Part shown: piece after piece, positions 29,201 through 49,079 of the stretch | Numbering within the stretch: position 1 is the first letter of the stretch | Layout: each line of letters begins with the position of its first letter | From: Raillietiella orientalis | Lineage: Eukaryota | Length of the DNA stretch: 64,000 nucleotides | NCBI GenBank assembly: GCA_036172245.1 | Contig: JAYWIR010000002.1 | Location: 1-64,000 of the forward strand | Direction: 5' to 3' | Position numbers and translations under genes: made by a program | Notes under the pieces: model-generated | What the model was told of the DNA's origin: nothing | The model's input: only the letters and a program-made list of their open reading frames with translations | Databases searched by the model: none

Positions 29201-30149
29201 CCCGCCTACCAGATCAGGTCATGGAAGCGCGGATCCCTATACCTCCAGAAAGGCCACAGAAAAGGGGGAGTCGTGAACTGCGTGGTGGCATCCCAGCTCC
29301 GCAATGCTGGAAGAAATCCGCCCGCAGTCCACCATAAAAACACCGCAACTTCCTTTTCTGATGGATGCTCGCATCTCGAACAAGGACAAAAGATACATCT
29401 CCAATCCAGTCTGAGGACTATAGGAAATTTTTTCACAAGGACTGCAGAAACGAAACCCAAATGAGGTGTCTTCCTCTTCCCCCTTCCCCTTCCTTCCCCT
29501 CTCCCCCCATTTAACTCAGCTACGAGCATCTTGCGCTCTGCGGTATGAGCAAATATGGCGGCAGGATGCATAAGGGATGCGCCTACTACAAAACGAAGAT
29601 CGCATTCTTCCAGATGCCCATACGCCTCACTCAACATTTGAACATCCAGATTTTCTCCGAACCAGATCCAAGTTCGGACGCAGAAGGCGTCTTCGCCACA
29701 CTTCTTTGCAACAAGGAAGATGTCCGTTCCTTCAGCTGACATGGGCCTATTCTTTGTCAACGTGGACAGACTGGACTGTTACAATTTTGCTCCAGTCTGC
29801 TCATATTCCGCTCATTTCCCATATATCACTGGGCTTCAGCATAGAGCAGCATTCATCTGCTTACATTTCATCAGCATTGGGTATAACAGTGGCTAAGTAC
29901 TCTCCTGCTATTTGAGCACATTTGGAGGCGTGTAGCAAAGGCTACGTGTGCTGAATTGGACCTCTTGCCCAGCTCAAGCTCACGCTTCTGCAATGAAAGA
30001 ACTCACACTCCAATGGAGAGCTTATGTAAAATGGGCACGGGCTAGCAGCATTTATCGATCTGTAAGTTTTCAATCACCATGAAATGTTGAGGATACTAGC
30101 TTCTGCAGAAACACCAGCACTGCATCCTGTTCGGTCAGTTTGGATATGG

Positions 30150-30600
30150 TTCAGCACTTTCTAGAGTGGTTTCCTGAAAGGATGCTTACTTGGTCATATG
30201 ACCCCTTGCGGAACACAACCTCCATGAGGGAAGGAGTCTTAAGGACTGCCTTGTCCTCAGTCGCCGCGAGTCTCTCTACAAGATCGGAATGAGCAAACCT
30301 CTCCCAGGCATGCATGTAGAAGCGTGTCAAGAAAAAGATCCCGAAGACATCAGGAGCCACAGAGTGCTCTCATGTCAAAGAGCGAGGTCATCGGTTCGGT
30401 TTTAAATCTTCCGAATGAGACAACGGGCTTCGACCACTGGAAGCCTCGCGCACCTTCGTTGATACGGGTCGCCACTTCCGGCAAGCTGTTCTCGTAGAGG
30501 GAACCAGAACTACCTAGTAGTTGGCTGGAGATTCGGCACACGAGGACTGAGCCATGACCCATGAGGTTCCCAGAAGCCCTGACTGCCACGGTTCTCCGGT
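30150..30600 (-). mobile_element. Possible decayed RTE-like LINE ORF2 C-terminal fragment
   Basis: LLGSSGSLYENSLPEVATRINEGARGF...RALCGS resembles YLGS....EI..RI..A...F...LLYGSE. Confidence 0.35.
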
Positions 30601-31919
30601 CTGAAAGCTTCTCGGAATATTCCCTTGGAGCTGAAAGCACAGATAAACCAGCAATAAGAAGAGGGTACGCCCAAAACCACCTACCCGCTTTCTCTAAGCA
30701 GAAGGAAAGAGGAAATGCCACTGTGGGCGAAGAACTGTTCCATCTATGGAAAAGGTAGTCTCGCCATCGGCATGGAAGAAAGCATCTGAGACAAGCGCAA
30801 AGGTCAAAAAGAAGAAATGTCACCATTCTCAGATGATGGAAAATCCAAGGGTCAAACCATTGCTGGGGATTGGCTACTCATTGGGTTTGAAAAGCCACAG
30901 AAAAGAGTTTGAATAGAAACAGTTCGAAGCTTCTGTGGAGGCGACCTGGAGAAGAGCTTCTTGATGGATTCAGAATTTTATGTCAAGAGTCGAGAAAGAG
31001 CAGAGTCGAGCAAAGACACTTTCGGATGGAGGAAAACCACGAGATCGGGATCAGAATCCTTGGAAGGACGCGAAAACGTGAGACAAGAAAATCGTTGCTA
31101 GTGCTTGTGGAAACCTTGAGATGAGAGGCTGCTAGTCAACTTCTTGGATGCACAGCACTAAGCAGAGAGACTCAGAACGTCAGCGGTATCAATCCTTAAG
31201 TGTCCGTAACTCAGAACGCCCCACAGGGCAGGTTAGTAAAAGTGAAGAAAAAGACACTTCCAGTGAAGCCATAGGTTGAGCAAGAGAAAGTTCACGATTC
31301 AAGCACTGAAGAATCCCTCACATATTTGCTGTCAGGACAGAGAGATGGAGAGTGGTGCGCGCCGTGAGCTTTTGCCTCTGTTAAAGGAGCCCGCAGTTCC
31401 CTTTAGAACCACAGTCATTCCTACTTGCGTATCTCGAGCAGCGGATTCAGAACGAACTCGGATAAATCGAAATTCAAAAAATCGAAACTGCCATCCTTAA
31501 CTGGCTGGACAGAGCGCTGGAAAACAGTTTGATGATGATGCTGTTTTTTTTTTTTTTTTTTTTTTTTTCCCCCTGGTTACAGACGTGCGGATGATTTACA
31601 GCGAACACTGATAGCTTGGATGCACAGGCAGCATCTCAAGGGCTCGGAATGCATCCCCGATCGACTTGATACGATGCGCTGATATCACACACTCTTATGC
31701 GAAAACAGAGCGCCGATCCACGTACTGGGTCAAGTTTGTGGCTGAAATCTTGACTGCTGCATGGCTCCCGTTCAAGTGGCTGAAAAGCCGGTTCCGTACA
31801 GGCGCCACTCGATTTACCTCACGGGTGCCTGTCCCCGTCATTGGTGTCATTGAATGAACCGATATTCCGATGAGCTTTCAGGAGGATTACGTGTGTGTGT
31901 TCTTTTCTTTATTTTGCAG

Positions 31920-32671
31920 GTTATGGAAACATTGCTCCCAAGACAAACACAGGCAAGATAATGACTATGTTGTATGCGTTGCTAGGGATACCCCTCATGC
32001 TCCTCTATCTGGCAAATATCGGTTCTTTCCTGGCCAATGCCTTCAAATTTACTTATTCTAAACTGTGTCGGTGCAGATCAATAAGAAAACGGCCCAGGTA
32101 CCTAGTGGTGTCTGAAAACATCCACCTGGACAACGTTCCATCCCTGCAAATCTCCGAAAGCAATCCTCAAGAATCCTTCGCGGTTCTTAGCCAGCAAGAT
32201 TCCCTGCAGCCATCTTCTTGCCTGGTGGAAATCGGAGAATCCACCTCGCTGACGCAAGAGCAGGAGAAGGACAGAAGCGTGCCACACAACAGTTCGTTCT
32301 TCACTTTAGACGGTGATGCTCAAAAAGACGTCCCCTCGATGAATCAAGTCAGAGTGCCGATCAGCTTGGTGCTCCAAGTTCTCGTGCTCTATATATGCAT
32401 CGGAGCAGCCATCTTTTCCCAGTGGGAAGGATGGGATTTATTGAATGGTGCCTATTTCTGTTTCGTGACATTGACCACTATCGGGTTTGGGGACCTCGTG
32501 CCTGGAAGTTCCGTGTTAAGTGCTGAGACGGAGGAGGCCAAGATAGTCATTTGCTGTCTCTACCTGCTGCTCGGATTGGCGACTTTGGCGATGGCACTGA
32601 GTTTGGTGCAGGAAGAAGTGGTGGCAAGACTCAAAAATATAGGACGTGTGCTGGGAATCGTCCAGGAATGA
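31920..32671 (+). CDS. K2P potassium channel, exon 3 (end of filter 1, M2-M4, pore 2, stop)
   Basis: Acceptor TTTATTTTGCAG; G+GT completes TIGYGNIAPKT; second filter YFCFVTLTTIGFGDLVP; TGA at 32669-32671. The joined CDS is 1161 nt (386 aa). Confidence 0.95.
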
Positions 32672-35600
32672 ACGATGTAAACATGAAGTCAGCTGCGCCG
32701 ATTAACAGCTGAAAGGATATTCTAGAAAGTTCGAGGGAAAAAATGGGTGGCGCGGTGAGAACCGTCACCTTCTCAGTTTTCCAAAGATTATCTTATCGAT
32801 TCCATCTCACGACAGTGGTTACTTCTCACCGTGGGCAATTTCTCAGAGGTTCTGCTGTTTTATTAATGGAGAAACTATTTTGAAAAAGAGAAATTTTAAT
32901 AATAGTAATATAACTGTTATTAGAAAAAAAATTACTTTATTTCTTTATACTCCTTTCCTTACGACAGAGAATTACTGTGATCCGACCAAAATTCCCTTCA
33001 CTTGAGATCTGAAAAACTGCAGGACGAAAACGTCGGCTGCATTTCTTATTTATTTCTTCGTATTACTGCATGTTTGCCCCCTCCCCTTCCCACCACACAC
33101 ACACGAGCGGTTTTTGTTTATTATCTTGTCTAATTAATTTTTTAGCATAATAAAACACGAAAACTATAAAGAATTTCCATCTCAACAACCATATCGGAAG
33201 TGTAGGTGTGCTTTGAGAAATTCTGGATGAAAAGTTCCCAATGGTCAGTCGATTTTGCCGTACTCACAGCAAAAAGGGCACTTCGTTTACTTATCCGTCT
33301 GCTTCGCTCTTCGGAGACGGCCAAGATCGTTCGTGGGAGATTTAGTGAAAGTATCAAATGTTTTTTTGGAAAATATGCATAAGTATTTCTCTTTTATTCG
33401 CGAAATCCATTGAGACGAACTGTCAATAAGAAAACAGATCCATTTTCGCCACGTTTCGAGTGAATGAGAATGGAATGGGGATGGATGAGGAGCGAATCTG
33501 CTTAACCCATTGATGATTACGTAACTCATAAGTTTTAGAACCCCGGAATCTCTGAATTCAGTCGGAAACATTTCTATTCTCATCGCTGCAATGGTATGTT
33601 GCAATGCTGCTTGCTATATGAGTAGCTGTGCCTTCCCTAAGAGTGGAAGAAAAAAAAAAAAAAAAGTGGTTTTCAAGCATGAAAGCAGTCTTCGCAAATG
33701 AGGAAAGTGTATCAGCCTCCAAGAACGTGTTTGCTTTTAACACACACTGCACACGCTGGTGAGCAAAACTGTGCTTTCCTGAAACACAAGATCACATTGA
33801 AGAGATGCTTGTGGGTGGTGGCAGTGAGGCATTGCCAGTAAGGATCGAAATGAAACACGAATTCGAACAACCACCACAATAACATTGCAATTGGGATGCT
33901 CTTGGTATAAGGCATAGGAACGTCCCTCCACCCTCAAAAAAAAAAAATAACACACGAGTTCATTCAACAGGCAAATTGACCGCGGAGGAAGGATGCGGTT
34001 TTCACACACTTTTGTTCTCATTTCTCTCCATGGGAACTGTGGAAAAATAATGAAAGTTGCGCTTGGACCAGACGAACCCAAAAGTGAAATTTCGAAAACT
34101 CTGTGGTTCGGGTACACCTCATACAATCAAAGGATTTGGGGAAAGGCTCTTTCCATATTGAGACCACAACTGCTGGTGTATAGGAGAAAACGTGTTTGTA
34201 AGTTAATTATGACTGTGAGCATTACCGTAGGTCCTGCGGTTTCAAGCAAAACGACAGTTTAGCAGAAATTTCGTAATTTAAGGCTTCTCAAAGCTTCTTG
34301 AACCGTCGCCTGGATTTCTTGAATCGCGCATGTCTAGATTGCAGCTCAGAAACTCTTCCGTGAACAAATACGATGCATTGATAATAGCTAATCAACGGTC
34401 ACCCTGACAAACTTTGGAGGACAAAGACTTCTTAGATTTAGGTGGGGACATTTATATCACCTAATGGGAGATGTATAGTGGGGTGATGTCAGCTAATGGA
34501 AGGATCACACTCACTCTTGCATCGATTTACAAATCAGCCGTGTGCACTTTGGCTGCACATTTCCATTGGAAATATGTCAGTGCCTTAGGAGAAACTATGG
34601 AAATTAAATTAATGCAACACATCATTGCACTACATTGCATATTTAAACTCGGAACCAAAAATCATCAGCTGGTGAATCATTTCACGATTCATGTCTTAGA
34701 AGTGAGACCAGATACTGGAAAAACTTAATTAAAGAAAATACAACTCTGTAGCGATACTGGGATTTCTTGAAGTGTGCTTCCTTGAAAAGCACACCATCTC
34801 CCACTTTCTGAATCCCTGCCCTCCAAATTTCGAATGCATTGCTGGAAACCGTGAAAAACAAACAAGCTGAAATAACAACTAATTAATGCCAGCCACTCCA
34901 CAAATGAAAGTCCATCTTAAGATCACACAAACACTGGACCACAGCATTGGAAAGATTTAAGGCAGATCGAAGAAGAACGCCCGGCTTTGGGCGGTCAGTG
35001 ATAAATCACCGAATATTCTCATTTGTATTTCACTAAGCTTGATCAGGATTTTAGAGTTAGTTTGACACAAAGAAATGAGATGTTTCACATCTTATGGAAA
35101 CATAAGAAATATTACCACTGGCGTGCTTTGCTTGGTCTTAATGAAATGCTTACAGCAAAAATTCCAGCAAATGCATTCCTTGTTTTTGTGCGTATTGGGA
35201 ATTGTGTGCCCCATTTAATCAATGGGTTGCGCCCACGAAATGTCGATTCATATAGGCCTTTCCACTTGAAGAAATCTCATTTGCAGATCAATACATTCCT
35301 CCTCATCTTTTAATATCATGATTCCGGATGGCTATAGCAAAAGTAACTTCATGATTTTTAAGCGAGATTTCTTTTGATAAAAAAATCTTGCTCCTGGCTA
35401 CTTTCTTCGGAATTGCTCACTCTCGTGTAAGCACCTCAAGCACGCTACAAAACTTTCTAAAAAATGAAAGTATCTCAGAACTTTGAAGCTAGTTGCCCCT
35501 AACCAAGATCACCTGCTGATAACGCGGACTATTGGTACTCCTTTTCGTAGGATTTCAAGAGATGAAATCAGAAACCATTCTCACAGAGCAACTTTTTTCT

Positions 35601-37312
35601 CATATGAGCATCTTGCAAACAAAGATAAGATGGCATGAAAGCACTTTTGGCCATAAACTGTCTCGAGCAGTTAGGCTGTCTCAAGGATTCAACTTGCAAA
35701 CTACAATAGCCACTGAAACACTGTGGGTTTTTTTTCTTCTTCATTCCAAGTCAGGTACCAAAGGAAGCCATAAACATTATCAGCATTCCTTACCGAATGT
35801 TCTACTGACGCCTCCAAATTCCCCCTCGAAATTTCAAGTTTCTCAACCAACCAATTATGGACTGTGCACAGAGTAATTTGTTTAAAATGTATGCATGCAT
35901 GGTGTTACAAGACCAACGAATAATACAATTAACCATAGTGAAAGTGGTCATCGTTTCTTCGGGTATACTCAGTGAAAATAATCATTGTTTTAAAAAGAAA
36001 CAGAATTATATTAACGTGGACTGTCAGTGCTGTCATTCAAGAGCAACTCTGTGTTGTCTATGAAAAATAAGAGGAACTTTTCATTGGTACCTCAAATAGG
36101 TCGTTCAAGCATGCATTGTCTGAGCTACCAGAACCATGCTTTGTGGACCATCATAATATTTGATGTCGGTCATTCGTAGCTCCTGCTCTTCAAACTTACC
36201 AAAGATCGTTCCTGATGCTAATTGGATGTTAAATCATTTATCTAATTCGATCTCTGTCACGTTACCATTGTAAAAAAACAAACTATGATAACAAAACAGA
36301 GATCACGAGAACCGATTGCAATAGACTCGAATAGCTTCTTTGGCTCGAATTTCACGTCCAACACGTTCAGAATCGACATGGATGCCAATATTCCCTGCGA
36401 ATGAGTGAAAACGAGCTTTACCACTGCTGATTTTATATACGTATTACGGAATTAAGAATTCCATTCATGGAAAAGTTGTGCTATTATCCTTCTTTATTTA
36501 ACATCTGGTCACTTTGCTCCTTTTTTTTTTTTGTTATGCATTGATAAGTTGCTGTTTGTTTCTACGAGGGTATTGAAAAGAGATGAATCTAGGTTTTCCT
36601 CTATAGGAACTGTTGCATACATATGGAAAGAAGCATATTTTTGTGTCTGCGTGGTTTGTCTCGGTACTTAATCCTCCTTATGAGGGCAAAGTTGCATTAT
36701 TATTCTGACACGAAAAGTGGCAGTGGTACGGTAGAAGAAATAGAAAATAGCATTGCTGTGCAATTGAAAAGCATGCAGCCGTTGAATTTCTTGTTGGAAG
36801 TACGTCATCGGAGAATGAGCACCAGTCGACGAGTGACCATGGCAACATGGTACTGTTCACGGAGATGGACAAAGCGCAGCAGAAACTGTGTACGCACCAG
36901 ATAGCTGATTTGCTGAACAAAACGTATAGCAGGGGACCTTACATGGACTATTCAATAACACACACCGCTCTGCTTATTGAAAAACACTCTCCGTTCTTAC
37001 CACTTCAAGAAGCTGATGCTGTATGTTGCAGTGACTCTTGGGAGTACGGAAAATGTACACACGTTTTTCTCATGCTGACTGGTTTGAAAAGCAGATGAAT
37101 GAATTTTATTGCCATTAAGATGAGGGCGAGTGCTTCGGCTCGCACATCGTAACAGGAAACGAAATCGGACTGCTTTACAACGAACTTCAGAGTAGGGACG
37201 GTAAAATATCCCCAGAAGTGACATCATTGACAAAAGGTTTGGGCCGAATCATCTGCGTGAAAAGTCGCTCTTACGAATTGGAAGAATGCAAAGCGAATGC
37301 TACTTTGCTGTT

Positions 37313-37381
37313 GCTTCCTAGTAAATTAGTAATTTACTAGGAAGCGACCAGGAAGTAAATTACTTCTTAGTGACTTCCTGG
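37313..37381. repeat. Two adjacent palindromes at the left insertion junction
   Basis: GCTTCCTAGTAAATTA-G-TAATTTACTAGGAAGC (perfect 16-bp arms, 37313-37345) and CCAGGAAGT-N16-ACTTCCTGG (37348-37381). Confidence 0.9.
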
Positions 37382-37572
37382 ACGAAACCCACCAAGAGAA
37401 AACGGTCGTTTTGACAAAGATAAGACACAAAAGACGTACAATTTCATAGGAAAGTACATAAAAGCAAAAGGTCGAGAACCGCGCAAGGCAATTAATACAT
37501 TAACCAAATTTATTCGAGTTCAGGAGGAAAATAATGTAAAATCAGCAAGAATAAGACTGGTGAGGAATATGC

Positions 37573-37975
37573 TACTTCCTGCATAGGTAACCCGCATATT
37601 ATCCTAGCCAATTGCTCAAACTGACTAACGTTACATGCATCCAAGCTCCAGTGGCAGGAATTGTGAGGTCTTGGAGCTAGTTCGTTAACTAGCAGCTTAT
37701 TATTTCTAGTAATGAAAAATTCAATAGCAAGGATTCCTACTGCATCAAGCGCATCTGCTATTTTCTCTGCGGTTTGTTGAGCTAATTTACTATCTATTTT
37801 AGCTGGCACTGTTGAAGCATCAAGTATTCCATCAACGTGGTGATTTTCTGCTATGGGAAAAAAAGTCACTTCACCGTTTTTATCTCTTGCAATAACTGTT
37901 GAAGCCTCTTTGAGTAAATCAACACCTGCCTCGAGGATATACTTTGTGTTCCAGCAAAGGGAAACAAATTGTTTC
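37573..37975 (-). pseudogene. purK: Internal fragment of bacterial N5-CAIR synthetase (ATP-grasp domain)
   Basis: One open frame: WNTKYILEAGVDLLKEASTVIARDKNGEVTFFPIAENHHVDGIL...GILAIEFF...LLVNELAPRPHNSCHWSLDACNVSQFEQLARIICGLP. It contains the PurK signature NE.APRPHNS.H and SQFEQ, and both ends of the gene are missing. Confidence 0.92.
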
Positions 37976-38175
37976 TCTTCTTGACTTTTCCTCCATTCAG
38001 CGCTCCTATTACGCTCCTCACCCTTCTTCTTTTGAATCCTGGTTTATCTGCAAATAATCTTCTGCCTCCAGGAGCCCATCCGTATGCATAAAATTTATTG
38101 TCTTTTATGCCTGATTCGTCTATAAATATTAAATCTCCTTTTCTTATTTTCGCCACTTTTTTGTAAATTCCGTCT
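37976..38175 (-). pseudogene. IS630-family transposase fragment (first catalytic Asp region)
   Basis: LIFIDESGIKDNKFYAYGWAPGGRRL...SVIGAL matches the IS630 motifs (Y/F)IDE(S/A)G, YGWAPxG and SxIGAL. Confidence 0.85.
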
Positions 38176-38242
38176 GAAGCTATTATTTATCTTCAGTCTG
38201 AGCACACAAAACGATAAAAAATTCACTGTACTTGGCTCCTTA

Positions 38243-38405
38243 TGGTTAATTTTTTGCACTATGTGCACCCCATGTCATTAAACTTTCAAGGTTTCTACCT
38301 ACCTAATATAAACTAAAATGCGCTTGTTAAAGGGTTTAACACAGTAAAAAACGCCAATTTAAAAAATAGATAGTGAATAACTAGCTAACAGGGTTTCTTT
38401 TGCCT
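38243..38405 (+). repeat. Wolbachia-type AT-rich intergenic repeat unit, ending at the IS110 insertion site
   Basis: AAAAACGCCAATTTAAAAAATAGATAGTGAATAACTAGCTA...GGGTTTCTTTTGCCT resembles, from memory, a dispersed Wolbachia intergenic repeat. Not verified by search. Confidence 0.5.
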
Positions 38406-38407
38406 TG

Positions 38408-38413
38408 TATATT
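38408..38413 (+). promoter_or_regulatory. Candidate sigma70 -10 box of the IS110 circle-junction promoter
   Basis: TATATT begins 3 nt inside the left end and ends 8 nt before the first bridge-RNA stem. In IS621 the -10 lies in the left end and the -35 in the right end, which is absent here. Confidence 0.55.
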
Positions 38414-38419
38414 GTAAAA

Positions 38420-38589
38420 AGCATCTAATGTTTTAGGCTGTAGCATTAGGTGGAGAAGGGAAAAACTCTGGCTTTTGCCTTAGATATATAATCTGTAAAA
38501 AAGAAAAGAGTTCCCTTCTCAAAAGTAAAGGCTGGACGGTATCGTAGAAAGACCTAAATGGTTCTAATTCTATATTCAGCCTTACTTTT
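38420..38589 (+). ncRNA. IS110 bridge RNA (5' hairpin, target-binding loop, donor-binding loop lacking its right donor guide)
   Basis: Hairpin 38422-38452. Stem GAGAAGGG..AACTCT/AGAGTTCCCTTCTC encloses guides CTTTTGCCT (38472-38480) and AAAAAAG (38497-38503). Stem AAAAGTAAAGGCTG/CAGCCTTACTTTT encloses ACGGTATC (38536-38543). The first guide is identical to the flank at 38397-38405. Confidence 0.82.
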
Positions 38590-38597
38590 CATTTTTA

Positions 38598-38745
38598 ATG
38601 GTAGCGTATGGGATGATCAACAACTTTCTGGGCATAGATCTATCAAAAGATCGCTTTGATGTTTGTCTCTCATTCATAAGTAAAAAAGGTAAACGTGAAA
38701 CTAGGAAAAGGAGCTTTAAGAACGATGATAGTGGGTTTCAAGGCT
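38598..38745 (+). pseudogene. IS110 recombinase N-terminal fragment (RuvC-like DEDD domain, first Asp)
   Basis: MVAYGMINNFLGIDLSKDRFDVCLSFISKKGKRETRKRSFKNDDSGFQG matches the IS110 motifs GID.SK..(F/L)DV and F.N...G. Too short to appear in the ORF track. Confidence 0.88.
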
Positions 38746-38777
38746 CCTTTGATTATTACTGACTATTATGAGAAGAG

Positions 38778-38893
38778 CTATAAAATCATCTCTGACAGAT
38801 ACAGAAATAGACGAAAACATTTTGGTTTAAGATTTAATTTGATTGCTGCTGTTCACAATTCTGAGCTCCCTATATGAATTTTGAAACAAGTCC
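38778..38893 (+). pseudogene. IS5-superfamily (ISL2-like) transposase C-terminus with probable right terminal repeat
   Basis: YKIISDRYRNRRKHFGLRFNLIAAVHNSEL* matches KI..DRYRNRRKRFGLRFNLIA.IYN.EL. It is followed by TTTTGAAACAAGTC. Confidence 0.75.
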
Positions 38894-38894
38894 A

Positions 38895-39025
38895 TTAACA
38901 GAGTCTTTTGGCTGCCATTTGCTCTATCTTCCAACATATTCACCAGATTTGAATTCTGTAGAACACTGTTGGCATAGCATCAAAAGTCGCCTCAGACCTC
39001 TAATGCATCAACACACAGATTTACA
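38895..39025 (+). pseudogene. IS630-family transposase C-terminal fragment (catalytic Glu region)
   Basis: FGCHLLYLPTYSPDLNSVEHCWHSIK matches LP.YSPDLNPIE..W. It lies on the opposite strand to the other IS630 piece. Confidence 0.88.
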
Positions 39026-40181
39026 TGCTTCCTAGTAAAGATGCAGTAGGAGAAAATCTGCTATTATCATTAATTCCAAGCAAAGGTTCGGCAGTTTTTA
39101 ACCCCAAAGCAAGTGAACTCGCACAGTTCCACCTGAGGAGCAGCGTGGCAATGCAAGACCGCAGATAAGGCGAGTGCTTCTGCTCCTTACTTTCATGACA
39201 TCAAAGTATTCGCCCTTAAGGTGACTTGTCTCCCAAAATTTCTACCTGCTCACAGAATCTTACGGGATCTTCCCAAGAAACCCTTCTTATAAAATAGAGG
39301 CTGCCTCGGAATTGCTCTGGTCAGATTACGAAAGTGAGAAGAAATTTGGACGGTCATATAAATTGCTGATTCGGGGAGGTTGAATGTATCACCTGCCAGC
39401 ATACCCTCGAGTATGTCTCCAAGTATTTTCATTAGTTGGCCTATGCTTCTCACAGGCTGATTCAATGATTGTTTCACAAAGTTCTGTGTCCTTTGAAACC
39501 AAAAACTAACGATTATGGAAAGTTTGACTAGGAATGAAAAATAGAATTAGTTTTCGCGTAAAATTGAAACAAAAGCTTTAGATTCGGTTGACGTCATGAC
39601 GCTGATTCACCTCTCAACAGAGAACGATTTGCCTCTTCCGTTTCACGCTACGTCGAAGTAATGAATTCCCAGCTTCCTAATGATAAACCTTGCAATAAAC
39701 AAAAAATCCACTTGACCAAACTTCCACCCAGTTTGGAAGGCAATGCTTGCGTGTATTACACAATTATCATCAGGTAAAAGAAAAGAAAAAAAATCCACAT
39801 AAACACTGACAAAAGCTAAATTATTTTTAAACGAACGTTTTCCATCTTTTCTTTTGCAAATGCTGAGACTAAAATGTCAATGCTCTTCACAATGCATTTT
39901 GTAATAGAAATACTAGATTTAAGCATGATACTTGCAACTGATGAAAGCTAAATACTGTTGCTCAAAACGCATCGCAAATGTTGGTATGCCTGCATAAAAA
40001 GATTGTAACGCGGCAAATGTCTATCAGCAGTTGCTGGAAATTTCCTGCAGATATTTATTATTATTCCTTGCATTTCAATATACCCTTGAAAAAAATTCCT
40101 TTATAAGTAATATCAAATGATAGCAACTGAACATATAAAACAATAATCCTTTATTAACATGGGCATTAATATTTGCAATGC

Positions 40182-43100
40182 TTACTCTAGAGCAGAATCT
40201 TTAGGTTTTTTACTTACTTCATCCGATTTAGTCACAGGGATAGGACAATTAACATTTGCATCAGCAGATTTGGCATGAACTTTTGTTTTGGACTTTGACT
40301 GAAAGGTATTTTTTTTGTTCAATGCCTGCAATCCAGAAGGACCAGTTTTATCATAAGCAAGTGGGCGAGCTTTTGCTGAATTTTTTATTGAAACGGGGCA
40401 TGCTCGGTTTGTGCTACTGGTTGGCATATGCCTTTTCACAGGCTCCTGAGAATTAGAAACCGGACAACCAGAAATGTTACGCTTTAGTGGCGGATTTTGG
40501 TCATTGCTGGATAATTTTTTAGCACCGTGTAAAACGCTTGATGCAGATGCCCCACTATGTTTAGTGGCTGTAGAAACTACCTTTGCAGGCTGACTAGATG
40601 CAACTGGTTTTTTACCAGGTATTTTTAAATCTTTTGTTTGTTCCCGTTTACATGTTTGAGCTGTAGTTGAAGACCTTGCAGGAGACTGTTTACTCTTTCT
40701 GATTTTATTTTTTGCATCTGTAGATTCTTTGGACAGGGGTTCCACTTTTGGTTTTCTATGTGATACAGCCAATTGTTCCTTATTCTTATGAACTACTGTT
40801 TGTTGCTTCACATCCACATGATGTTTAGACTCTGAAGTACTTCCTTTATTTTTCAGTCTGTCAATACCAGGTTGCCTCTTCTGACAAGCTGCAGAAGCTT
40901 TTGCTTGACCTGACTGCCCTTTTGGAAGCACAGGTGAATGCCTTTTGTTTCCCTTAATTATTTCAGTTTCTTTGGCTGACACCTTCCCTAAAACTGCATC
41001 CTTTCGAAGATGCTGTATATCTTCTTCCACTAGTTGCAGCACATCATCCTCAAGCTTCTGATTATCCTTCTTCCCCACAGTATAGACTTCCTTTCTCACA
41101 CAAGGAGGCTCATCAGCTACTGGACCCTTAGGAGGATCTTTCATTTTGACAATAACATCTTCATGCACTTCCTTAGGGAGAGAGACAGTAGGTTCTTTGC
41201 TCCCAGAAGGATCATTTGAACCTGCATCCTTGGGCTCAGTATCAGAAAAATCTTTTTTATTACATACACCTTTTCCATGGCTGTCTTTTCCCTTTAACTC
41301 TTTAGAATCGTCATAATGTGGTTCCTTGCCATCATTTAGAGGAGTCTGATCTTGACTTTTATCTTCAGCTAATCTTCTTGGAAGTTCAGGATTAACCACA
41401 TTTGGAGTAGGATCCTGTTTATTTGATAGCTTGTCTTCTGAAGGTGACAACACATCTTGTTTTTCTTCTGTTGTATGTTTTCTCTTTTCATCCTTTCCAA
41501 ATGAATGCACATTGTCAGCTGCATTGCATTTTTCTTGGGATTCATCATCATCACTCTTTTTGTCCTTTTTCAAGACAAATTCTTGATTCAGAAAATCTTG
41601 GTTTAATGATTCTCTCAAAGAATTGATGTCTATGAACTGTTTACGATTGATGTTTTGTTCTTTTTCAGAAAAACACGACTGATTTTTTGGATTTTTGTCA
41701 TCTTTTCTAACAATATCATATGAATGAATTACCTCTGCCTGTTTTGATGCAAACGAGAAATCCAAAAACTTGTTCATTCCAGATTCTGTTTTGAGAGTTA
41801 CAGGAAGTTCAGGCTTGGGAATTACAGGGAGTTCAGGCTTGGGAGTTACAGAGAGTTCAGGCTTAGGAATTACAGGGAGTTCAGGCTTGGGGGTTATGGG
41901 GAATTGAAGCTTGGGAGTTACAGGGAGTTCAGGCTTGGGAGTTATGGGGAATTGAAGCTTGGGAGTTACAGGAAGTTCAGGCTTGGGAGTTACAGGGAGT
42001 TCAGGTTTGGGAGTTACAGGGAGTTCAGGCTTGGGAGTTACAGGGAGTTCAGGTTTGGGAGTTACAGGGAGTTCAGGTTTGGGAGTTACAGGGAGTTCAG
42101 GTGTGGGAGTTACAGGGAGTTCAGGCTGGGGGGTTACAGGGAGTTCAGGCTGGGGGGTTACAGGGAGTTCAGGCTGGAGAGTTACAGAGAGTTCAGGCTT
42201 GGGAGTTACAGGGACTTCAGGCTTGGGAGTTAAAGGAATTTCTTCCTTGGAAGTTCCAGGGAATTCTGGCTTCAAAATCGATGGGGGCTCCACTTGAGTG
42301 CTTCCAAGTTTGCCCAAATTTTGTGTTAGTGAATTATTGTTAACTAAATGGACATTGTCTTCATAAGGGGAATAAAAAGACGTAGTTTCTTCTAATGCAT
42401 GGGCATTATCCACTCCAGTCACAGAAGATTTAGTCAAAAGTGGTTCTGATTTTGGATTCACTGATGCAACTTCTTTCTTATCTTCTTGATTTGCAAAGTC
42501 TTGCACTCGTTTATCTAAACCAGAAAAATTTTCAGGTTGACCAATTTCTTCCTCTGGAAGTAACAGAATACTGCTTCCTTGCTTCATACTGCAATATTTC
42601 CAGTCATCATCAGAATCATCAACAGCTTCTTCCACTAATCCTTCAGGCATCTCATCTGATGCTACTAGAAGTCGTATACTTCCTAAAATGAATGTGATAT
42701 ACTTACAAGCAGATTTATTATCTGTACCTTCATTGTCATACGAGTCATCAGCTAAATTGTATTTACTGTCAAATGTACTGACATCACCATAATTACTTGG
42801 AAGATCCTTACTCATGGCTACCTTCTTGGATGCAAAAGGATCTATAAGAACTACTACTTTTGAAGTGTTTTTATTCTTGACTCGAATATTTTGAGGATGA
42901 TTAAGATATACAACTATCACAGTAATATTGTCTTGTGACCCCTTGCAAATGGCTGTTTTCACCAATTCTGCACTAGCACTGTACCACTGGTCTAGAAGAG
43001 AAAAAAAAAATTACAGCGCTCCCGATACAAATGAACCTTCCTTGTTGTGTCACACGTACACTCAACTTGATTACTGAATTTTAATTTTAAAACTTGCGCA

Positions 43101-46100
43101 CAAGGCTTTTGAAACTAGCACACTACATTGGCACAGGGTTGTTAACACTGCGCTGAAACATCATGAAATACTGGTTTGAACGGTGTGAGAATTATTACGC
43201 ATACTCAATTCTGGTAAATTTTGTTAGTAAGCGATCGAATTTCTCAGAAACTGGAAAACCTTCACACTTCACGTTTTTGCACTGCGCATTCATGCCACAC
43301 ACACGAGCGCAACTTCTCACCTTCAAACTATTGGCAAATACTCAAACAAAACGGATTTCCGCATCGAATATCTTAAACAGTTTTCTAATAATAATACAAT
43401 GCCTAACCTGATGCCTGTTAGTACTCATTAATAAAACAGGTTACGAACTAATTGGCGCATTTCAGCACAATACTGCAATAGATGAATACACAAAAAAGAA
43501 ACATCCAAGACGCAACGCACGCAAAAAAAAAAAAAAAAAACGATACAGATAAAGGCATGTTTTGGGACCACACCCGATCACGCGAAATGCTGCAACCACA
43601 CTCGGAAATGCACGGCTACATTCAAACATCACGCTCATAAATTTTGAACTGCCGACACAAGCTGCAGCTCGACAAGGCAAAAACTCTTAGGCACGCAAAA
43701 ACACCCACTGCTGAGGAAAGCTTCGCTGGTCACGCATAACGATTAACATCCAATAACACGTCGGGGCACAAGAAACCACCCGCAACCAAAAGAAAGAAAG
43801 AAGGGGAAAAAAAACACAGGCGATGACTAGAACACATGCACGCGTTATGACAGGGACCGTCTTGGGAACTCCCTGCAGTCAATTTGCTGGCGGTTCGGGA
43901 GTCGCAAGGAGAGAGCACCAGGAGCAGTGTGGGCAACCGAGATCGAGCAGCAGGGAAAGTCATATCGACAAAACCGAAGATGCCCACGCAGTGAGGAATC
44001 TCAAATCGCCACCGGGTGGTGGTAGGCAAATGAACAGGCCCTTTCAAGTTGCTGGGGAGAGTAAACACTCGGGAAAACAAGGGCAGAAGTACACAAACCG
44101 GTAATATTTGTCATGTTGTGATTCCTACTGCGCACACGAAACCTTTTCCGAGTTAAAACAACCCGGAACGTGCCGAGATGATGCTACATTGAAATTTGGA
44201 ACCCATGTATACACAAATAGGAGTAACACTTCATGGAAAGGCAGCAATACTTGAACTAAAAACTTTGATAATCATATCTGCAAAAGATTTATGCTTCCTC
44301 TGCAAGTACGGTAAATGGGAAAGACCCTGCTGACAAATTACTGATTTCGGGATACAGAATCAAACTAAGACCCAACACGGCAGTTCAATGTTTTAAATCG
44401 TTCTCACCATAGTGGTTTATTAAAGTTGAATTCATCAATCAGAATTGGATTCGGAGAAATCCCAAAACAAACAAATTACGGATTTCAAAATTTGCTAAAA
44501 CGAACACAATTGATTATATTTAAAATTAGGTTTAATTGTGTCTGGATAACAATATGAATACGAAAGAAAATATAAAACATACATCTGAAAATTCATACTG
44601 GCACAAAAGCAAAAACTACATATTTTCCAGTGAATCAATTTTCTGGAACCAAGTACTTACCTGGTGTGTCCTTCACAAGTGAATTTACCAGTTGTGCTGC
44701 CTCTGCTGCTTTTACAGAATCCCAAAGGCCATCACATGCCAAAATAAGAAAATCTTCATCACCATCAAGATGAATCATGCGAACATCTGGCTCCGCAATA
44801 ATATATGGCTTATATCTCACATCGCCTGAGAAAGTGTTAGGAAGAAAAAAACAAAAAAATGATAGGATACTCAACCAAACCTTGTGGAAAAATACCGAAC
44901 AAATCTACATTTTTTTTACTTTTCCTTAGAGCATGTGCCCCCCCATTACTTTAAAAGCATATGTTTCATATAGATGTTCCTTTGAACAACATGCACTGCA
45001 ACTCAGCATTCAAATAGCAGGTTTATGTGCAACTGATTTCTTCATATACCACCAAAGTTTCGCATTAAAATAGAAAAATTAACTTGAATTTTCATTGTTT
45101 TGACATGCACTTGTGATGAGAATCAAACAAAATCCCACAATTTATACTTTTACTGAAGTTCTTCATATAATATATTGAAGACATGAAAGAAAACTGAATG
45201 ATCAACACATTTAATTTCACCCTAATGGCAATGTATGTTATATTAAACACATTACATTTACTCACCAATAGCACGTGATATAGATAGATATCCATTGACT
45301 CTTAATTCTCCAACATTAAATGAAACAAAACCACCTTGATCAACAATCCTGTTCTTTTCTCTCTTAAAATTTTAATTAGAAAACACAAAACTTCACAAAT
45401 TACCTCCTCAGTTGGTTTGTGTGGCTTTACAATTTGATAAGATAAACCTTGTTTCACCAAAGCAGCTTGTGAATCCCCCAGCCAAGCAATGTATAGTATT
45501 TTATCCCGTATCATAGCTACTACTGCTGTTGTGCCACCTCTTAACGTCTATAATACAGAGTACAAGATTTTTGTAATGCTTGATACTCACCTGCTCCTCA
45601 CTCTTGCTTAAAAAGACTTCATCAGTCATAAGAAAGCCATCCCGTATGGCATCAGGAAGATGATGCTTAAAATTGGGACTGCGTACAATATGAGCATGAA
45701 GGTGAGCAGCTGAATAACATGCAGCATCAATACCTGCATGCCCATCAAATATAGCATAATAACTAGTTGGAGAACAATCCTATAGCATGCAGACTTTTAG
45801 TCCCACCATGAGATTTTAGATATTACCTTCACATTCATTAAGCATCCTAAATCTTCAATTATCACATGTTCATCTTCCATTTTGAAGCGATGATTACGAA
45901 CAGCATAAGATGTTGCCAACATAAAAGGTTCTGGAACTTTCACATCCTTTAAAGACTGTAGAAATTCACTATCATGCAAAAGCTCTTCTGTCATTGTTCT
46001 TACCACCTGTACTAATGCACATGGCTTATAACCTGCTGGCAATGAAACCTATACACTGGTCAACTCTTACCCATGTCAGAAAGTTCAAAGGAATAAGAAC

Positions 46101-49079
46101 TTTGAATGGAATTTTTCCGAAGGATTTCAGCACTAATCATCTGAGCCAATTGATACAAATATGTTAAAGAGCAATCTCTGAAAAACAAAACACTACAACT
46201 GGAAATTGTTCTCTTGAAATCTGTAGATTCAATACTGATCCTAGACTCAAGCTTATTATAAACATTTTCGATTTTTTAACTTTTATACAAACTCCAGAAA
46301 CATTTCACTAACCAAAACACCCAAAGAGTTCCAGTAGTTTGGTAAGAAAGCATGTTAAAAAACAATGGTTTCCAAAATTTCAATTGTTTTAACAGTTTTT
46401 GTAATACTAACATATCTTTTTCTTAAATCCATAAAGCAAACTGAGATATTATTTCCTTTACATTATTATTTTAAATTCTGCTATAACTTTCCCACAGGAA
46501 AACAGTCTGCTGCTTTAAGCTTCAGAGTCAAGCAAGTCATGCCTCCTTAATAAAGTCTTCTCGTGACCAAAACTGATGAAGCTGTAATTTTGATCACTAC
46601 CTTACACTAACAAATGTTGAAAGTTTCGCAATCATGTATAGTATTAATATTATCCAGAAATGAAAAATACTTCCTATAAAAAGTAATGTCCTTCCCATAT
46701 ATTTTGCACTTTATGCTGAATTTTTGAAAATATTAAAAGATTGAATGATGAATGAATAAAAACAGTTGAAAAATGTAAAGCATTTCACTTAGGGGGTGAG
46801 ACATCACAAGTTCCATGTATTAACTGAGTTCCTCACTATAACTCAAGAATTAAAATACCCTAAAATTCATCAAACCAATTATGAAACTTAAACAGTTCAT
46901 CAAATTGCTTTAGAGGCGCGTAAAATCTTCAAACTTCTATCCATGTTTTTTTGGGGAAAAACTAAAACAGCCAATTGTACAGCTATAGTCTGACACAAAC
47001 AAATACTAATTTATGATAAAAATTAGTCAAAACAAATTAACAGTAAATCTACCATGCAATGACATTTCTGAATTGGTGCATTAACCATAGTCTTCCATTT
47101 GGGAAGACACTGCTATTGGAGACAAATACAGATAAATATTGTGTGTGAATCAAACACTGAATGCTGCAAAGTACAATTCAGCATATGAGCATTATGTATG
47201 TTATGTAAGAGCACTAAAGGAACAAAAATCACATATCACTGTAGAAAAATTTCTGCTATCAAGTGGTAAAATTTCACTTTGGCAGATTGAAATTTAAGAT
47301 CTATTACCGAATTCGGAATACAGAAGTTACAAACACTCAACAAATCAACCCAAACCAATTTGAATGGCCTTCAAAAAAAAAATTGAATTGCAGTTTGATT
47401 ACTAACAGAAGATGAGTGAGAATATTCGGTGAGTGAGCTTTGAGAACTGAAACGTGGAAATTCCTTTTACAAACACATATGTACGATCAAAACTCGAATA
47501 GAGGTGCTTAATCATGAATTTTTATCAACAAAAAAATCCCTCAAGAGAAATTTTGATTGCTAGCAATGCCAAGCAGCAGTTCATTTGAGACTATGTATTC
47601 CTCATATCCATTGGAATGATCATAGCAATTGATTTCTTTCATTGAAAGTCCTCAATAACATTTTCATGTTAATCTGTCTGACAATCTGATAGACAAGAAA
47701 ATGTACGAATTAATACTTTGCATATTGTTTCACAAAATGGAGAAACATTGGCAATGGTAAGAAAAACACATACAGATACCCCATCAGCTCTCCTACAGCC
47801 ACCAGTTTCTCCTTTTGTTTTACTTTACTTAAAGGAATTATTCAATGTACTTTCTATTTTTCATTTCTTATTTTTTATTTGTTTTCATAACAAAAAATAA
47901 GAATGTAATAAACGTATGTCATGGAACTGAATCAGACTATGTAATGTTAGTATAATTAAATTGAGTGTGGTCGTGAATGCTTAGTGTTTTGCTCATTTCA
48001 GGCTACTGAATTCACAAATGATCAATTTTTTAATAACATATGCTGTCACATTTTATTGCATCTGATAAGTTTTACAAATAATTCTTTAATTTTTGATGCA
48101 GTCATCATCTTGCAAAAAATTTTATAACCAATATGCACTTATACAACCATTTCTTTGGATTACCATCGAAGTTCCCTATCATTCTAAAGAAAAATTGCAC
48201 CATGTTAAAGCATTTCATTCTTGGTTTCATTAATATTATCCTCATGCACAGAATTCACACGTCGTGTCCTAAATATTTCCAATGTGCAAGGGAAAAATGA
48301 ACAAAATCTGAATCATTCCAAAAATTTCAAATAATGAAAAACAATTTACACCCAAACTTAACACAAGACATTGGTTAAATAATATAAACTTTATTTCTAT
48401 ATTAAAAAAATATATATAAACAAGAAAATCTAAAACATGAGCAATGCCCTGAATGCTAACCAGGCAGATGTGCAAGTACAAGTTGGTGGAATCATACTAT
48501 AGCAGTAACCTGCCATACTGGGATCAGAATTGGCATTGCAGTGCTTTACTGTTGCTCATAACAAGGTTGGGAAAAGCAAAGAAATTATTTTATCATTAAA
48601 CTATTTTCAATGTACAAATGAATAAACAGCTTATAACATATCTCAAAAATTCATGAGAATTCTGGAAATTCCATGTGATGCAATGACTCGCATTTTTTCA
48701 ACTTACAAAATAAGCGCATGTACAGGTTGGGACTACATTTCGATTCTGCGGTTGACTAAAGGAAAACTGTGACCTTTATACAAATGCCTTAGGCATGTAA
48801 GATGATTTTATGTCATTTGGCTGATTTATTGGAACAAAATGACTTTGTAGGATCCAATAGGACATACATATTTGGTCCTTAGTGAGTATAAACATATCCT
48901 TTGATAAATACATTCTACTTTGACAGCAACGTTACTTACGCTCCTATTAAATGCTTCAATACTGCAGATCTAACTTCTGCATCCAGTTCTTCATGCTTTA
49001 CATAATAATTGAGTGATACAGGAAAAGAGACTTTCCTCGTCTTGCTTAGGGAATCCTCGGATTTATTGAATATTTCCAT
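40182..49079 (-). CDS. PP2C/PPM-family protein phosphatase, PPM1E/F-like, with a ~900-aa low-complexity C-terminal tail
   Basis: Exons 49079-48940, 46177-46071, 46032-45827, 45779-45591, 45547-45404, 45362-45266, 44825-44661, 42991-40182, with a probable extra intron at 42706-42665. All phases are consistent (3858 nt with that intron retained). Motifs: RFKMEDEH, FDGHAG, GGTTA, AWLGDS, RVNG..SRAIGD, LACDGLWD, GSQDNITV. Confidence 0.92.
41790..42245 (-). repeat. Coding 24-bp minisatellite, 19 units, encoding (PELPVTPK)n
   Basis: Tandem TTGGGAGTTACAGGGAGTTCAGGC-like units on the + strand; 456 bp = 19 x 24. Confidence 0.97.

Follow-up and report, generated by a model that had tools for sequence, protein, structure and literature searches.

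IS110-family insertion sequences (ISs) that land in repeats are already known. IS621 of E. coli is reported to use a 177-nucleotide (nt) bridge RNA, in which the nine bases of the right donor guide (RDG) pair discontiguously with seven donor bases, and its natural target is given as ATCAGGCCTAC (Durrant et al. 2024, PMC11208160); the IS621 bridge RNA is also treated in Hiraizumi et al. 2024 (PMC11208158). For ISPpu9 and ISPpu10 of Pseudomonas putida, the abstracts (PMC12288879; bioRxiv 10.64898/2026.03.19.712850) describe IS110 insertions that all lie in copies of one conserved intergenic repeat. The IS110 groups of Wolbachia, namely ISWen2, ISWpi12, ISWpi13, ISWpi14 and IS110-wA, are placed in prophage WO regions by Cerveau et al. 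2011 (PMC3205602), a survey that predates bridge RNAs and in which we saw no target rule. In the library searched, no paper names both Wolbachia and bridge RNA, although Wolbachia elements and their targets may already figure in the supplementary tables of Durrant et al. Here we analyzed a 64-kb stretch of DNA, called the window below, in which positions 38406-38743 are very probably, judging from the sequence, the decayed left stump of an IS621-type Wolbachia IS110-family element that was guide-targeted to an abundant intergenic repeat.

Homology of the window to intact copies begins at positions 38403-38406 and ends at 38743-38757, and the element begins with TGTATATTG at 38406 (coordinates of all features are collected in Table 1). 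The nine bases at the insertion junction, CTTTTGCCT, are found again 66 bases inside the element, at 38472-38480, where they are followed by TAGATAT. The wMel prophage record MN180250.1 aligns from window position 38403 onward with 83% identity, and the intact wMel element (L001:3004-4490, 1487 bp) runs from TGTATC to ACGGTATCT and contains a 344-amino-acid (aa) gene. In the pairwise alignment, the window flank ends in CTTTTGCCT followed by TGTAT and the wMel flank ends in ATATCTCCT followed by TGTAT, with ATATCTCCT-TAGATAT at the same internal place. The internal 9-mer switches together with the flank between the window and the wMel copy; guide and flank are identical at 9 of 9 positions in both copies, and the guides differ.

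A protein-guided scan of one genome per species yielded 38 loci, mostly from Wolbachia, and 29 related left ends were aligned with the window. The backbone of these left ends is almost invariant, and only two blocks vary: the seven bases before CT-TAGATAT, which hold the left target guide (LTG), and the five bases after AATCTGT (then AG), which hold the right target guide (RTG). We compared the guides with the flanks, leaving the 12 copies from wCori (G002) out of the table, and found that a copy's own guide agreed with its own flank at 4.9 of 7 positions on the left (n=16) and at 4.5 of 5 on the right (n=13), versus 1.7 of 7 and 1.7 of 5 when guides were set against flanks from another lineage. 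The right flank agreed with the reverse-complemented RTG at 5 of 5 positions in seven loci (L005, L008, L022, L023, L028, L030 and L033) and at 4 of 5 in six (L001, L004, L006, L007, L021 and L024), and the mismatch in L001 and L021 would correspond to a G-T wobble. Five G001 copies have an RTG identical to that of the window, and for these the agreement was 3-5 of 5 positions. Since only these two left-end blocks vary and both track the flanks, the 9/9 identity of guide and flank is not due to chance.

The right end of the relatives (pattern A[CT]GGTATCT) could be located for 21 of the 29 loci. It lay 1.27-2.54 kb beyond the left end and was preceded by a conserved TTGTTGAC...AAGA block; independently of this pattern search, blastn alignments to the wMel element reached its last base in 14 loci. 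These elements end in GACGGTATCT, followed by the five bases that their RTG predicts. Both the left flank and the right end of the element terminate in CT, and the two ends, TGTATC... and ...GGTATCT, are not inverted repeats. In the relatives, the left donor guide (LDG), ACGGTATC(G/T), corresponds to the right end ACGGTATCT, and the RDG, GTATnnACAAG, corresponds to the left end CT-TGTAT; the LDG is conserved in 28 of the 28 full-length left ends of the alignment. RNAalifold of 14 left ends gave a consensus of 42 pairs, three of them with compensatory changes, arranged in two stem-loops whose large internal loops hold LTG/RTG and LDG/RDG, respectively. The intact relatives, which are 83-87% identical to the window at the DNA level, encode a protein with DEDD_Tnp_IS110 (E=4e-25) and Transposase_20 (E=3e-22) domains.

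This architecture resembles that of IS621 in a bridge RNA that is encoded by the left end, ahead of the DEDD recombinase gene, in the two stem-loops with internal loops, in an LTG of 9 nt that reads as the left target on the top strand together with the CT core, and in an RTG that is the reverse complement of the core plus the right target. As described for IS621, the RDG has 9 nt that pair discontiguously with seven donor bases and the core is CT. When the right and left ends are joined in sequence, they read TTGACT-17-TATCTT, a sigma-70-like promoter rebuilt across the junction, in agreement with the remark on a natural -35 box in PMC11208160. The natural target also lies in a multicopy non-coding repeat in both systems. 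The Wolbachia elements differ in their RTG block, which comprises 5+2 nt versus 2+2 nt in IS621, hence a target of 14 bp, and in the target of the window lineage, which consists of a T-run preceded by a small hairpin within a module of ~150 bp and is not an E. coli repetitive extragenic palindromic (REP) sequence. The likeness is drawn from RNA and DNA features, and the window copy, unlike IS621, is a dead stump. With ISPpu9 and ISPpu10, as summarized in their abstracts, the shared trait is insertion in a REP or conserved intergenic repeat, and the differences lie in host, repeat and guide sequences. With the groups listed by Cerveau et al., the shared traits are Wolbachia, the IS110 family and, for the wMel copy, a prophage WO location; the window lineage is not assigned to a named group.

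A preliminary description of this DNA had read the LTG CTTTTGCCT, the RTG AAAAAAG, the LDG ACGGTATCG and the element start TGTATATTG from the letters, and all four were confirmed in place. The span that it gave, 38243-38543, contains 163 bases of flank and then the first 138 bases of the element. Its donor, ACGGTAT-CT-TGTAT, agrees with the ends of related elements, with the qualification that the TGTAT half was read from the element's first bases and that the window copy has lost the guide expected to pair with this half. The right ends that it expected to carry ACGGTAT were found as ACGGTATCT in related intact copies, not in a complete element of the window's own specificity.

The window copy itself is dead: its right end is missing, its recombinase gene is truncated and its RDG is deleted. 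No ACGGTATCT right end occurs anywhere in the 64-kb window. The GTATnnACAAGG block, present in all 28 other full-length left ends and in a metagenome copy (L171), has lost nnACAAGG in the window, so that the 3' side of the second bridge RNA loop is deleted, and a G>A change is found at 38572, three bases before the deletion. Because the RDG is deleted, the bridge RNA of this copy could no longer recognize its donor, and the copy has no recombinase either. The match of the donor loop to the element's own ends, absent from the window copy with its deleted RDG and missing right end, still characterizes the lineage, since the relatives possess it and the window copy is their remnant. The recombinase stump of ~45 codons scored E=0.0059 and 16.8 bits against Pfam DEDD_Tnp_IS110, under the cut-off of 29, and in pairwise alignment it lacks seven bases found at the annotated wMel start region. 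The window copy was, and no longer is, programmed: it is a dead stump in a non-Wolbachia context.

We examined the DNA into which the element was inserted. The flank is 73-84% identical to 54 places in G001 and 55 in G005, and its 163 bases next to the element were found at four places in G003, three in G004 and none in G002 (at most 40 candidates were scored per genome). The whole repeat unit is ~460 bp long and consists of two related modules, each ending in GGGnTT-CTTTTGCC-TTTTTT, and the window insertion lies at the end of module 1. In 26 empty units aligned from four Wolbachia genomes, GCCT was followed by a T-run in every case (at least five Ts in 24 units and TTTTC in two), the exact left half CTTTTGC was present in 14 units and the whole 14-mer in 12; the main subfamily of G001 has TATTTGC at the target site. 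The target CTTTTGC-CT-TTTTT proposed in the preliminary description, with its T-run predicted for empty units, was thus borne out on both sides, the left half by the 9/9 guide match and the right half by these 26 units. The dispersed AT-rich Wolbachia repeat that it had named is also real, with the correction that the site ends the first of two modules and not the unit.

The exact 14-mer was matched 1387 times in 44 of the 60 Wolbachia species genomes, up to 140 times per genome, versus six matches for its reversed version, used as control. The 42 exact sites in the first 400 kb of G001 all share one module architecture, AAAAACGCC followed by ~40 variable bases and the core, and neighboring sites on the same strand are 133-158 bases apart. 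One of the 42 sites falls within an open reading frame (ORF) of at least 100 aa and none within an ORF of at least 150 aa, and such ORFs cover 80% and 74% of the sequence, respectively; the 14-mer target is intergenic. A profile built from the upstream part of the module only, omitting the core, found 70 modules in the same 400 kb, in which the 14-mer was exact in 36 and had one mismatch in 12, two in 10 and three in 12. The repeat might be identical with the wMel variable-number tandem repeat (VNTR) periods VNTR-141/105.

RNAfold predicted a 5-pair hairpin, (A)GGGC-7 nt-GCC(UU), directly before the T-run, which weakly supports an intrinsic terminator-like module end; the hairpin was not called by a terminator scan. 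The units begin with a near-consensus sigma-70-like TTGACA-17-TAT(T/C)AT that points into the unit (11 of 12; L048:1737-1765, minus strand, and aligned units), and their transcription may yield small RNAs that terminate in the T-runs. A scan of the repeat units against Rfam matched no family. The repeat resembles REP/REPIN sequences in its high copy number, intergenic location and short, hairpin-bearing conserved core, and it differs from them in its modules of ~130-160 bp, which are often paired, in the promoter-like site at the start of the unit and in a hairpin of only 4-5 bp. No description matching the repeat was found in the literature searched; the accessible parts of the work on Wolbachia VNTRs (PMC3287509), of the Cappable-seq papers and of those on CGTC/GTAG REPs gave no match at the sequence level. 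Two other identities were rejected. The repeat is not part of the neighboring IS630 fragment, since in other genomes its units occur on their own, next to unrelated DNA, and it is not Rfam WsnRNA46, a palindromic element that lies beside some units and not inside them. Copies of WsnRNA46 were seen at L056:1185-1308 and L048:741-849 (79 and 52 bits, cut-off 65.3), on both strands, and the flanks of L171 and L021 are palindromes similar to it.

By homology to IS621, the living element would have consisted of a DEDD recombinase and a bridge RNA, encoded in the left end, with two programmable loops. The target loop (LTG CTTTTGCCT, RTG AAAAAAG) would have specified the 14-bp site CTTTTGC-CT-TTTTT, and the donor loop (LDG ACGGTATCG, RDG GTATnnACAAG) would have recognized the joined ends of the circularized element, ACGGTAT-CT-TGTAT. 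Strand exchange by the recombinase at the CT core, a chemistry inferred from that homology, would have inserted the element after GCCT and before the T-run that closes a module of the abundant, intergenic Wolbachia repeat. The copy was broken later: other IS debris cut the recombinase gene after ~45 codons, the right end disappeared and the RDG was deleted.

Two further left ends carry matching guide sequence. In G041 (contig C54), a left end of 79 bases that is 93.7% identical to the window shows the matching LTG context and is then cut off; it is inserted after CTTTTGCCT at the end of repeat module 2, guide and site agree at 9 of 9 positions, and it is a second, independent cognate insertion. 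L171, a metagenome contig of 1146 bp, has a left end 94.8% identical to the window, with the window's LTG and RTG and an intact RDG, GTATTAACAAGG. Other searches returned little. The exact guide-plus-stem pattern had no match in the species genomes or IMG/VR, and a 16-mer matched three times in the 60 genomes, with up to one mismatch, and 49 times in IMG/VR, each time outside a bridge-RNA context. Six of the seven matches of a 19-mer in metagenomes were unrelated, and a left-junction pattern with up to two mismatches returned mainly chance or other-lineage matches. At L143 (G044:C1:823764), L145 (G015:C1:1150763, the same locus) and L144 (G043:C8:32556), the repeat module end CTTTTGCCT is followed only by TGTATCT(TG), which equals the opening 7-9 bases of the IS110 left end; the DNA beyond is unrelated and contains no IS110 sequence. 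This may be the deletion footprint of an earlier insertion or chance.

An abundant intergenic repeat was very probably targeted, as the parallel with IS621 and REP in the preliminary description would have it, and landing there may benefit the element as a safe harbor, an adaptive strategy that the data allow and do not prove. It is possible, if somewhat doubtful, that the repeat landing is real and no strategy at all, guides that drift onto an abundant 14-mer simply leaving more surviving copies, with non-coding sites tolerating insertions. The wMel copy sits between phage genes, and the window lineage is known from two cognate insertions only, both dead. Other lineages target non-repeats: the predicted target of a G001 lineage had no match at 0-1 mismatch in 400 kb, so repeat targeting is not universal in the subfamily. 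On the other hand, a second lineage, L033 of wCori, also has a multicopy predicted target (19 matches with up to one mismatch in G002, versus one for the control), and IS621 and ISPpu9/10, at the level of the abstracts, show a like habit.

Several observations weigh against a guide-targeted insertion in the window. Its right target half is lost, and the T-run is known from other units only. An Rfam 15 scan of 37000-40500 (E up to 1) detected no bridge-RNA family on the left end and returned only a chance miRNA match. No complete element with the window's target loop was found in the 60 Wolbachia species genomes or in IMG/VR. The eukaryotic context described below is drawn from few long ORFs, one K+ channel-like ORF, composition and missing Wolbachia matches, not from an identified host. 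Some G001 copies fit their own LTG poorly (0-4 of 7 positions). L171, the only left end with the window's guides and an intact donor loop, is in a non-cognate position: its left flank, ...CTAAAGGGCT, lies beside a palindromic repeat and fits the LTG of L021, AATAGGGCT, and not its own. Finally, of the twelve wCori copies, which carry the LTG GTCGTAACT (L011 reads GTCGTAATT) and have the RTG TAACAAG in common, six have the left flank (A/T)TAGACCT, and CTTGC is found in three of the seven known right flanks. Such flanks are what the guides of L033, a co-resident lineage (AATAGACCT / GCAAGAG), call for, and own-guide fits were seen only in L011 (left) and L015 (right). A copy's own guides therefore do not always explain its position.

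The behavior of L171 and of the wCori copies raises the question of whether the window copy was likewise placed by a bridge RNA from elsewhere, or exchanged its target loop after insertion, its guide/flank match being fortunate and not causal. The donor ends and LDG/RDG are conserved in all lineages, any lineage's bridge RNA could move any circle, and bridge RNA is reported to work in trans (Durrant et al., PMC11208160). We consider this unlikely for the window, as the window and the independent G041 copy both sit at their own-guide site, at 9 of 9 positions each and in different repeat modules, and most lineages match their own flanks.

For wCori, trans-guiding by a neighbor's bridge RNA would be a simple explanation, because the element ends and the donor loop are common to all lineages. 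We tentatively suggest from these sequences that co-resident Wolbachia IS110 lineages might form a guild, with one donor end and loop and different target loops, moving each other's circles, and that the module might be a REP-analogous landing pad. If true, copies that sit at the target of a different lineage would be accounted for, and the genus-wide ~150-bp module, with CTTTTGCCTTTTTT at its end, would be a so far undescribed REP analogue that provides, in 44 of 60 Wolbachia species, a native landing pad that is multicopy and intergenic. Among the wCori loci L010-L020, L029 and L033 (CP116769.1), the main IS110 lineage is 2.54 kb long (e.g., L016:2274-4816), not 1.5 kb. Its recombinase gene is separated from the right end by a cargo of ~1.3 kb, in which a patatin-like ORF runs on the opposite strand (L016:3624-4364, Pfam Patatin E=5.5e-10). 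The left flank of L011 resembles a stretch inside this cargo that fits the lineage's own LTG.

The surroundings of the guide-targeted stump were also analyzed. When window positions 30001-48000 were compared with five Wolbachia genomes (G001, G003, G005, G007 and G059), Wolbachia-like DNA was confined, among the matches listed, to ~37569-39030; the comparison gave 21 further matches. This patch is a mosaic of a purK piece, an internal IS630-family piece, the non-coding repeat part, the IS110 stump, another multicopy element and a C-terminal IS630-family piece. The G+C content of the window is ~0.6 in the first 24 kb and 0.3-0.45 further on, and only 12 ORFs of at least 200 aa occur in the 64 kb, one of which is two-pore K+ channel-like (Ion_trans_2, E=1.4e-28). 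The window is not a Wolbachia genome, and its surroundings look eukaryotic; the patch would be an old Wolbachia insert in a eukaryote-like genome. Since the patch is only ~1.5 kb long, an assembly chimera or contamination was considered in place of integrated DNA. This is quite improbable, as the patch is merely 83-89% identical to the five genomes and is made of truncated pieces with private deletions, whereas reads from a living symbiont would appear intact and contiguous with further Wolbachia DNA. A search of a plasmid collection gave no match.

A direct repeat without guide function, produced by chance or by duplication, is a scarcely credible source of the identity between 38397-38405 and 38472-38480, even in an AT-rich, low-complexity sequence: more than 10 lineages show covariation of these two positions with their flanks, and the right half of the target, which the window does not show, was predicted and then seen in empty units.

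The element in the window itself does nothing. To the known repeat-landing IS110 elements, its lineage adds a Wolbachia case with a 7+CT+5 target code, which is thereby defined for the Wolbachia IS110 subfamily. IS621-type guide rules were readable from a fossil of 200 bases, and the unseen half of the target was predicted and then confirmed in other genomes. The analysis also drew attention to an intergenic repeat that is very abundant in Wolbachia and whose 14-bp core hardly varies. Wolbachia has reportedly resisted transformation, and an RNA-guided recombinase that is native to the genus and has a non-coding target in many copies would, if true, be a conceivable engineering handle.

Table 1. 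Features of the IS110 stump and of the Wolbachia-like patch around it (window coordinates)
Feature	Position	Strand	Basis or remark
IS110-family remnant: left end with bridge RNA gene and first ~45 recombinase codons	38406..38743	+	blastn against intact copies
Left target plus core dinucleotide (CTTTTGC-CT), CTTTTGCCT, at insertion junction	38397..38405	+	9/9 identical to left target guide
LTG, CTTTTGCCT	38472..38480	+	5' side of first internal loop (stem-loop 1); hypervariable alignment block
RTG, AAAAAAG	38497..38503	+	Reverse complement CT+TTTTT; second hypervariable block
LDG, ACGGTATCG	38536..38544	+	Matches right end ACGGTATCT of related intact copies
8-bp deletion removing the RDG (nnACAAGG of GTATnnACAAGG)	38575..38576	+	Block kept in relatives
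DEDD recombinase gene, N-terminal stump (MINNFLGIDLSKDRF...)	38613..38743	+	Aligned to wMel gene
Dispersed intergenic Wolbachia repeat unit, left part	38174..38405	+	Module 1 without promoter-like first ~40 bases; IS110 insertion cuts right side
Wolbachia-like purK (ATP-grasp) gene fragment	37569..37980	-	Left edge of Wolbachia-like patch
IS630-family (DDE_3) transposase gene, internal fragment	37989..38156	-	DDE_3 profile positions 1-47, E=6e-5, under curated cut-off
Multicopy Wolbachia element fragment	38772..38901		85-87% identity, many places in G001, G005 and G059
IS630-family (DDE_3) transposase gene, C-terminal fragment	38884..39030	+	Pfam DDE_3 E=8.8e-11; right patch edge

Among the other pieces of the patch, the purK fragment matched Pfam ATP-grasp (E=3e-28, ORF 37510-37869) and showed 83-85% DNA identity to single places in the five Wolbachia genomes, and the C-terminal IS630-family fragment was 88-89% identical to more than 30 places in G005. 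A Pfam scan of the ORF at 38695-38877, in the region of the multicopy element fragment, gave no match. The IS630-family (DDE_3) fragments, at 37866-38156 and 38874-39035, lie in opposite orientations and bracket the repeat and the IS110 stump. Immediately to the right of the patch, a 927-aa open frame without a Pfam match (40182-42965, minus strand) looks like host coding sequence, and within it a 24-bp tandem repeat of 20 units (41791-42272) encodes PELPVTPK-type repeats.

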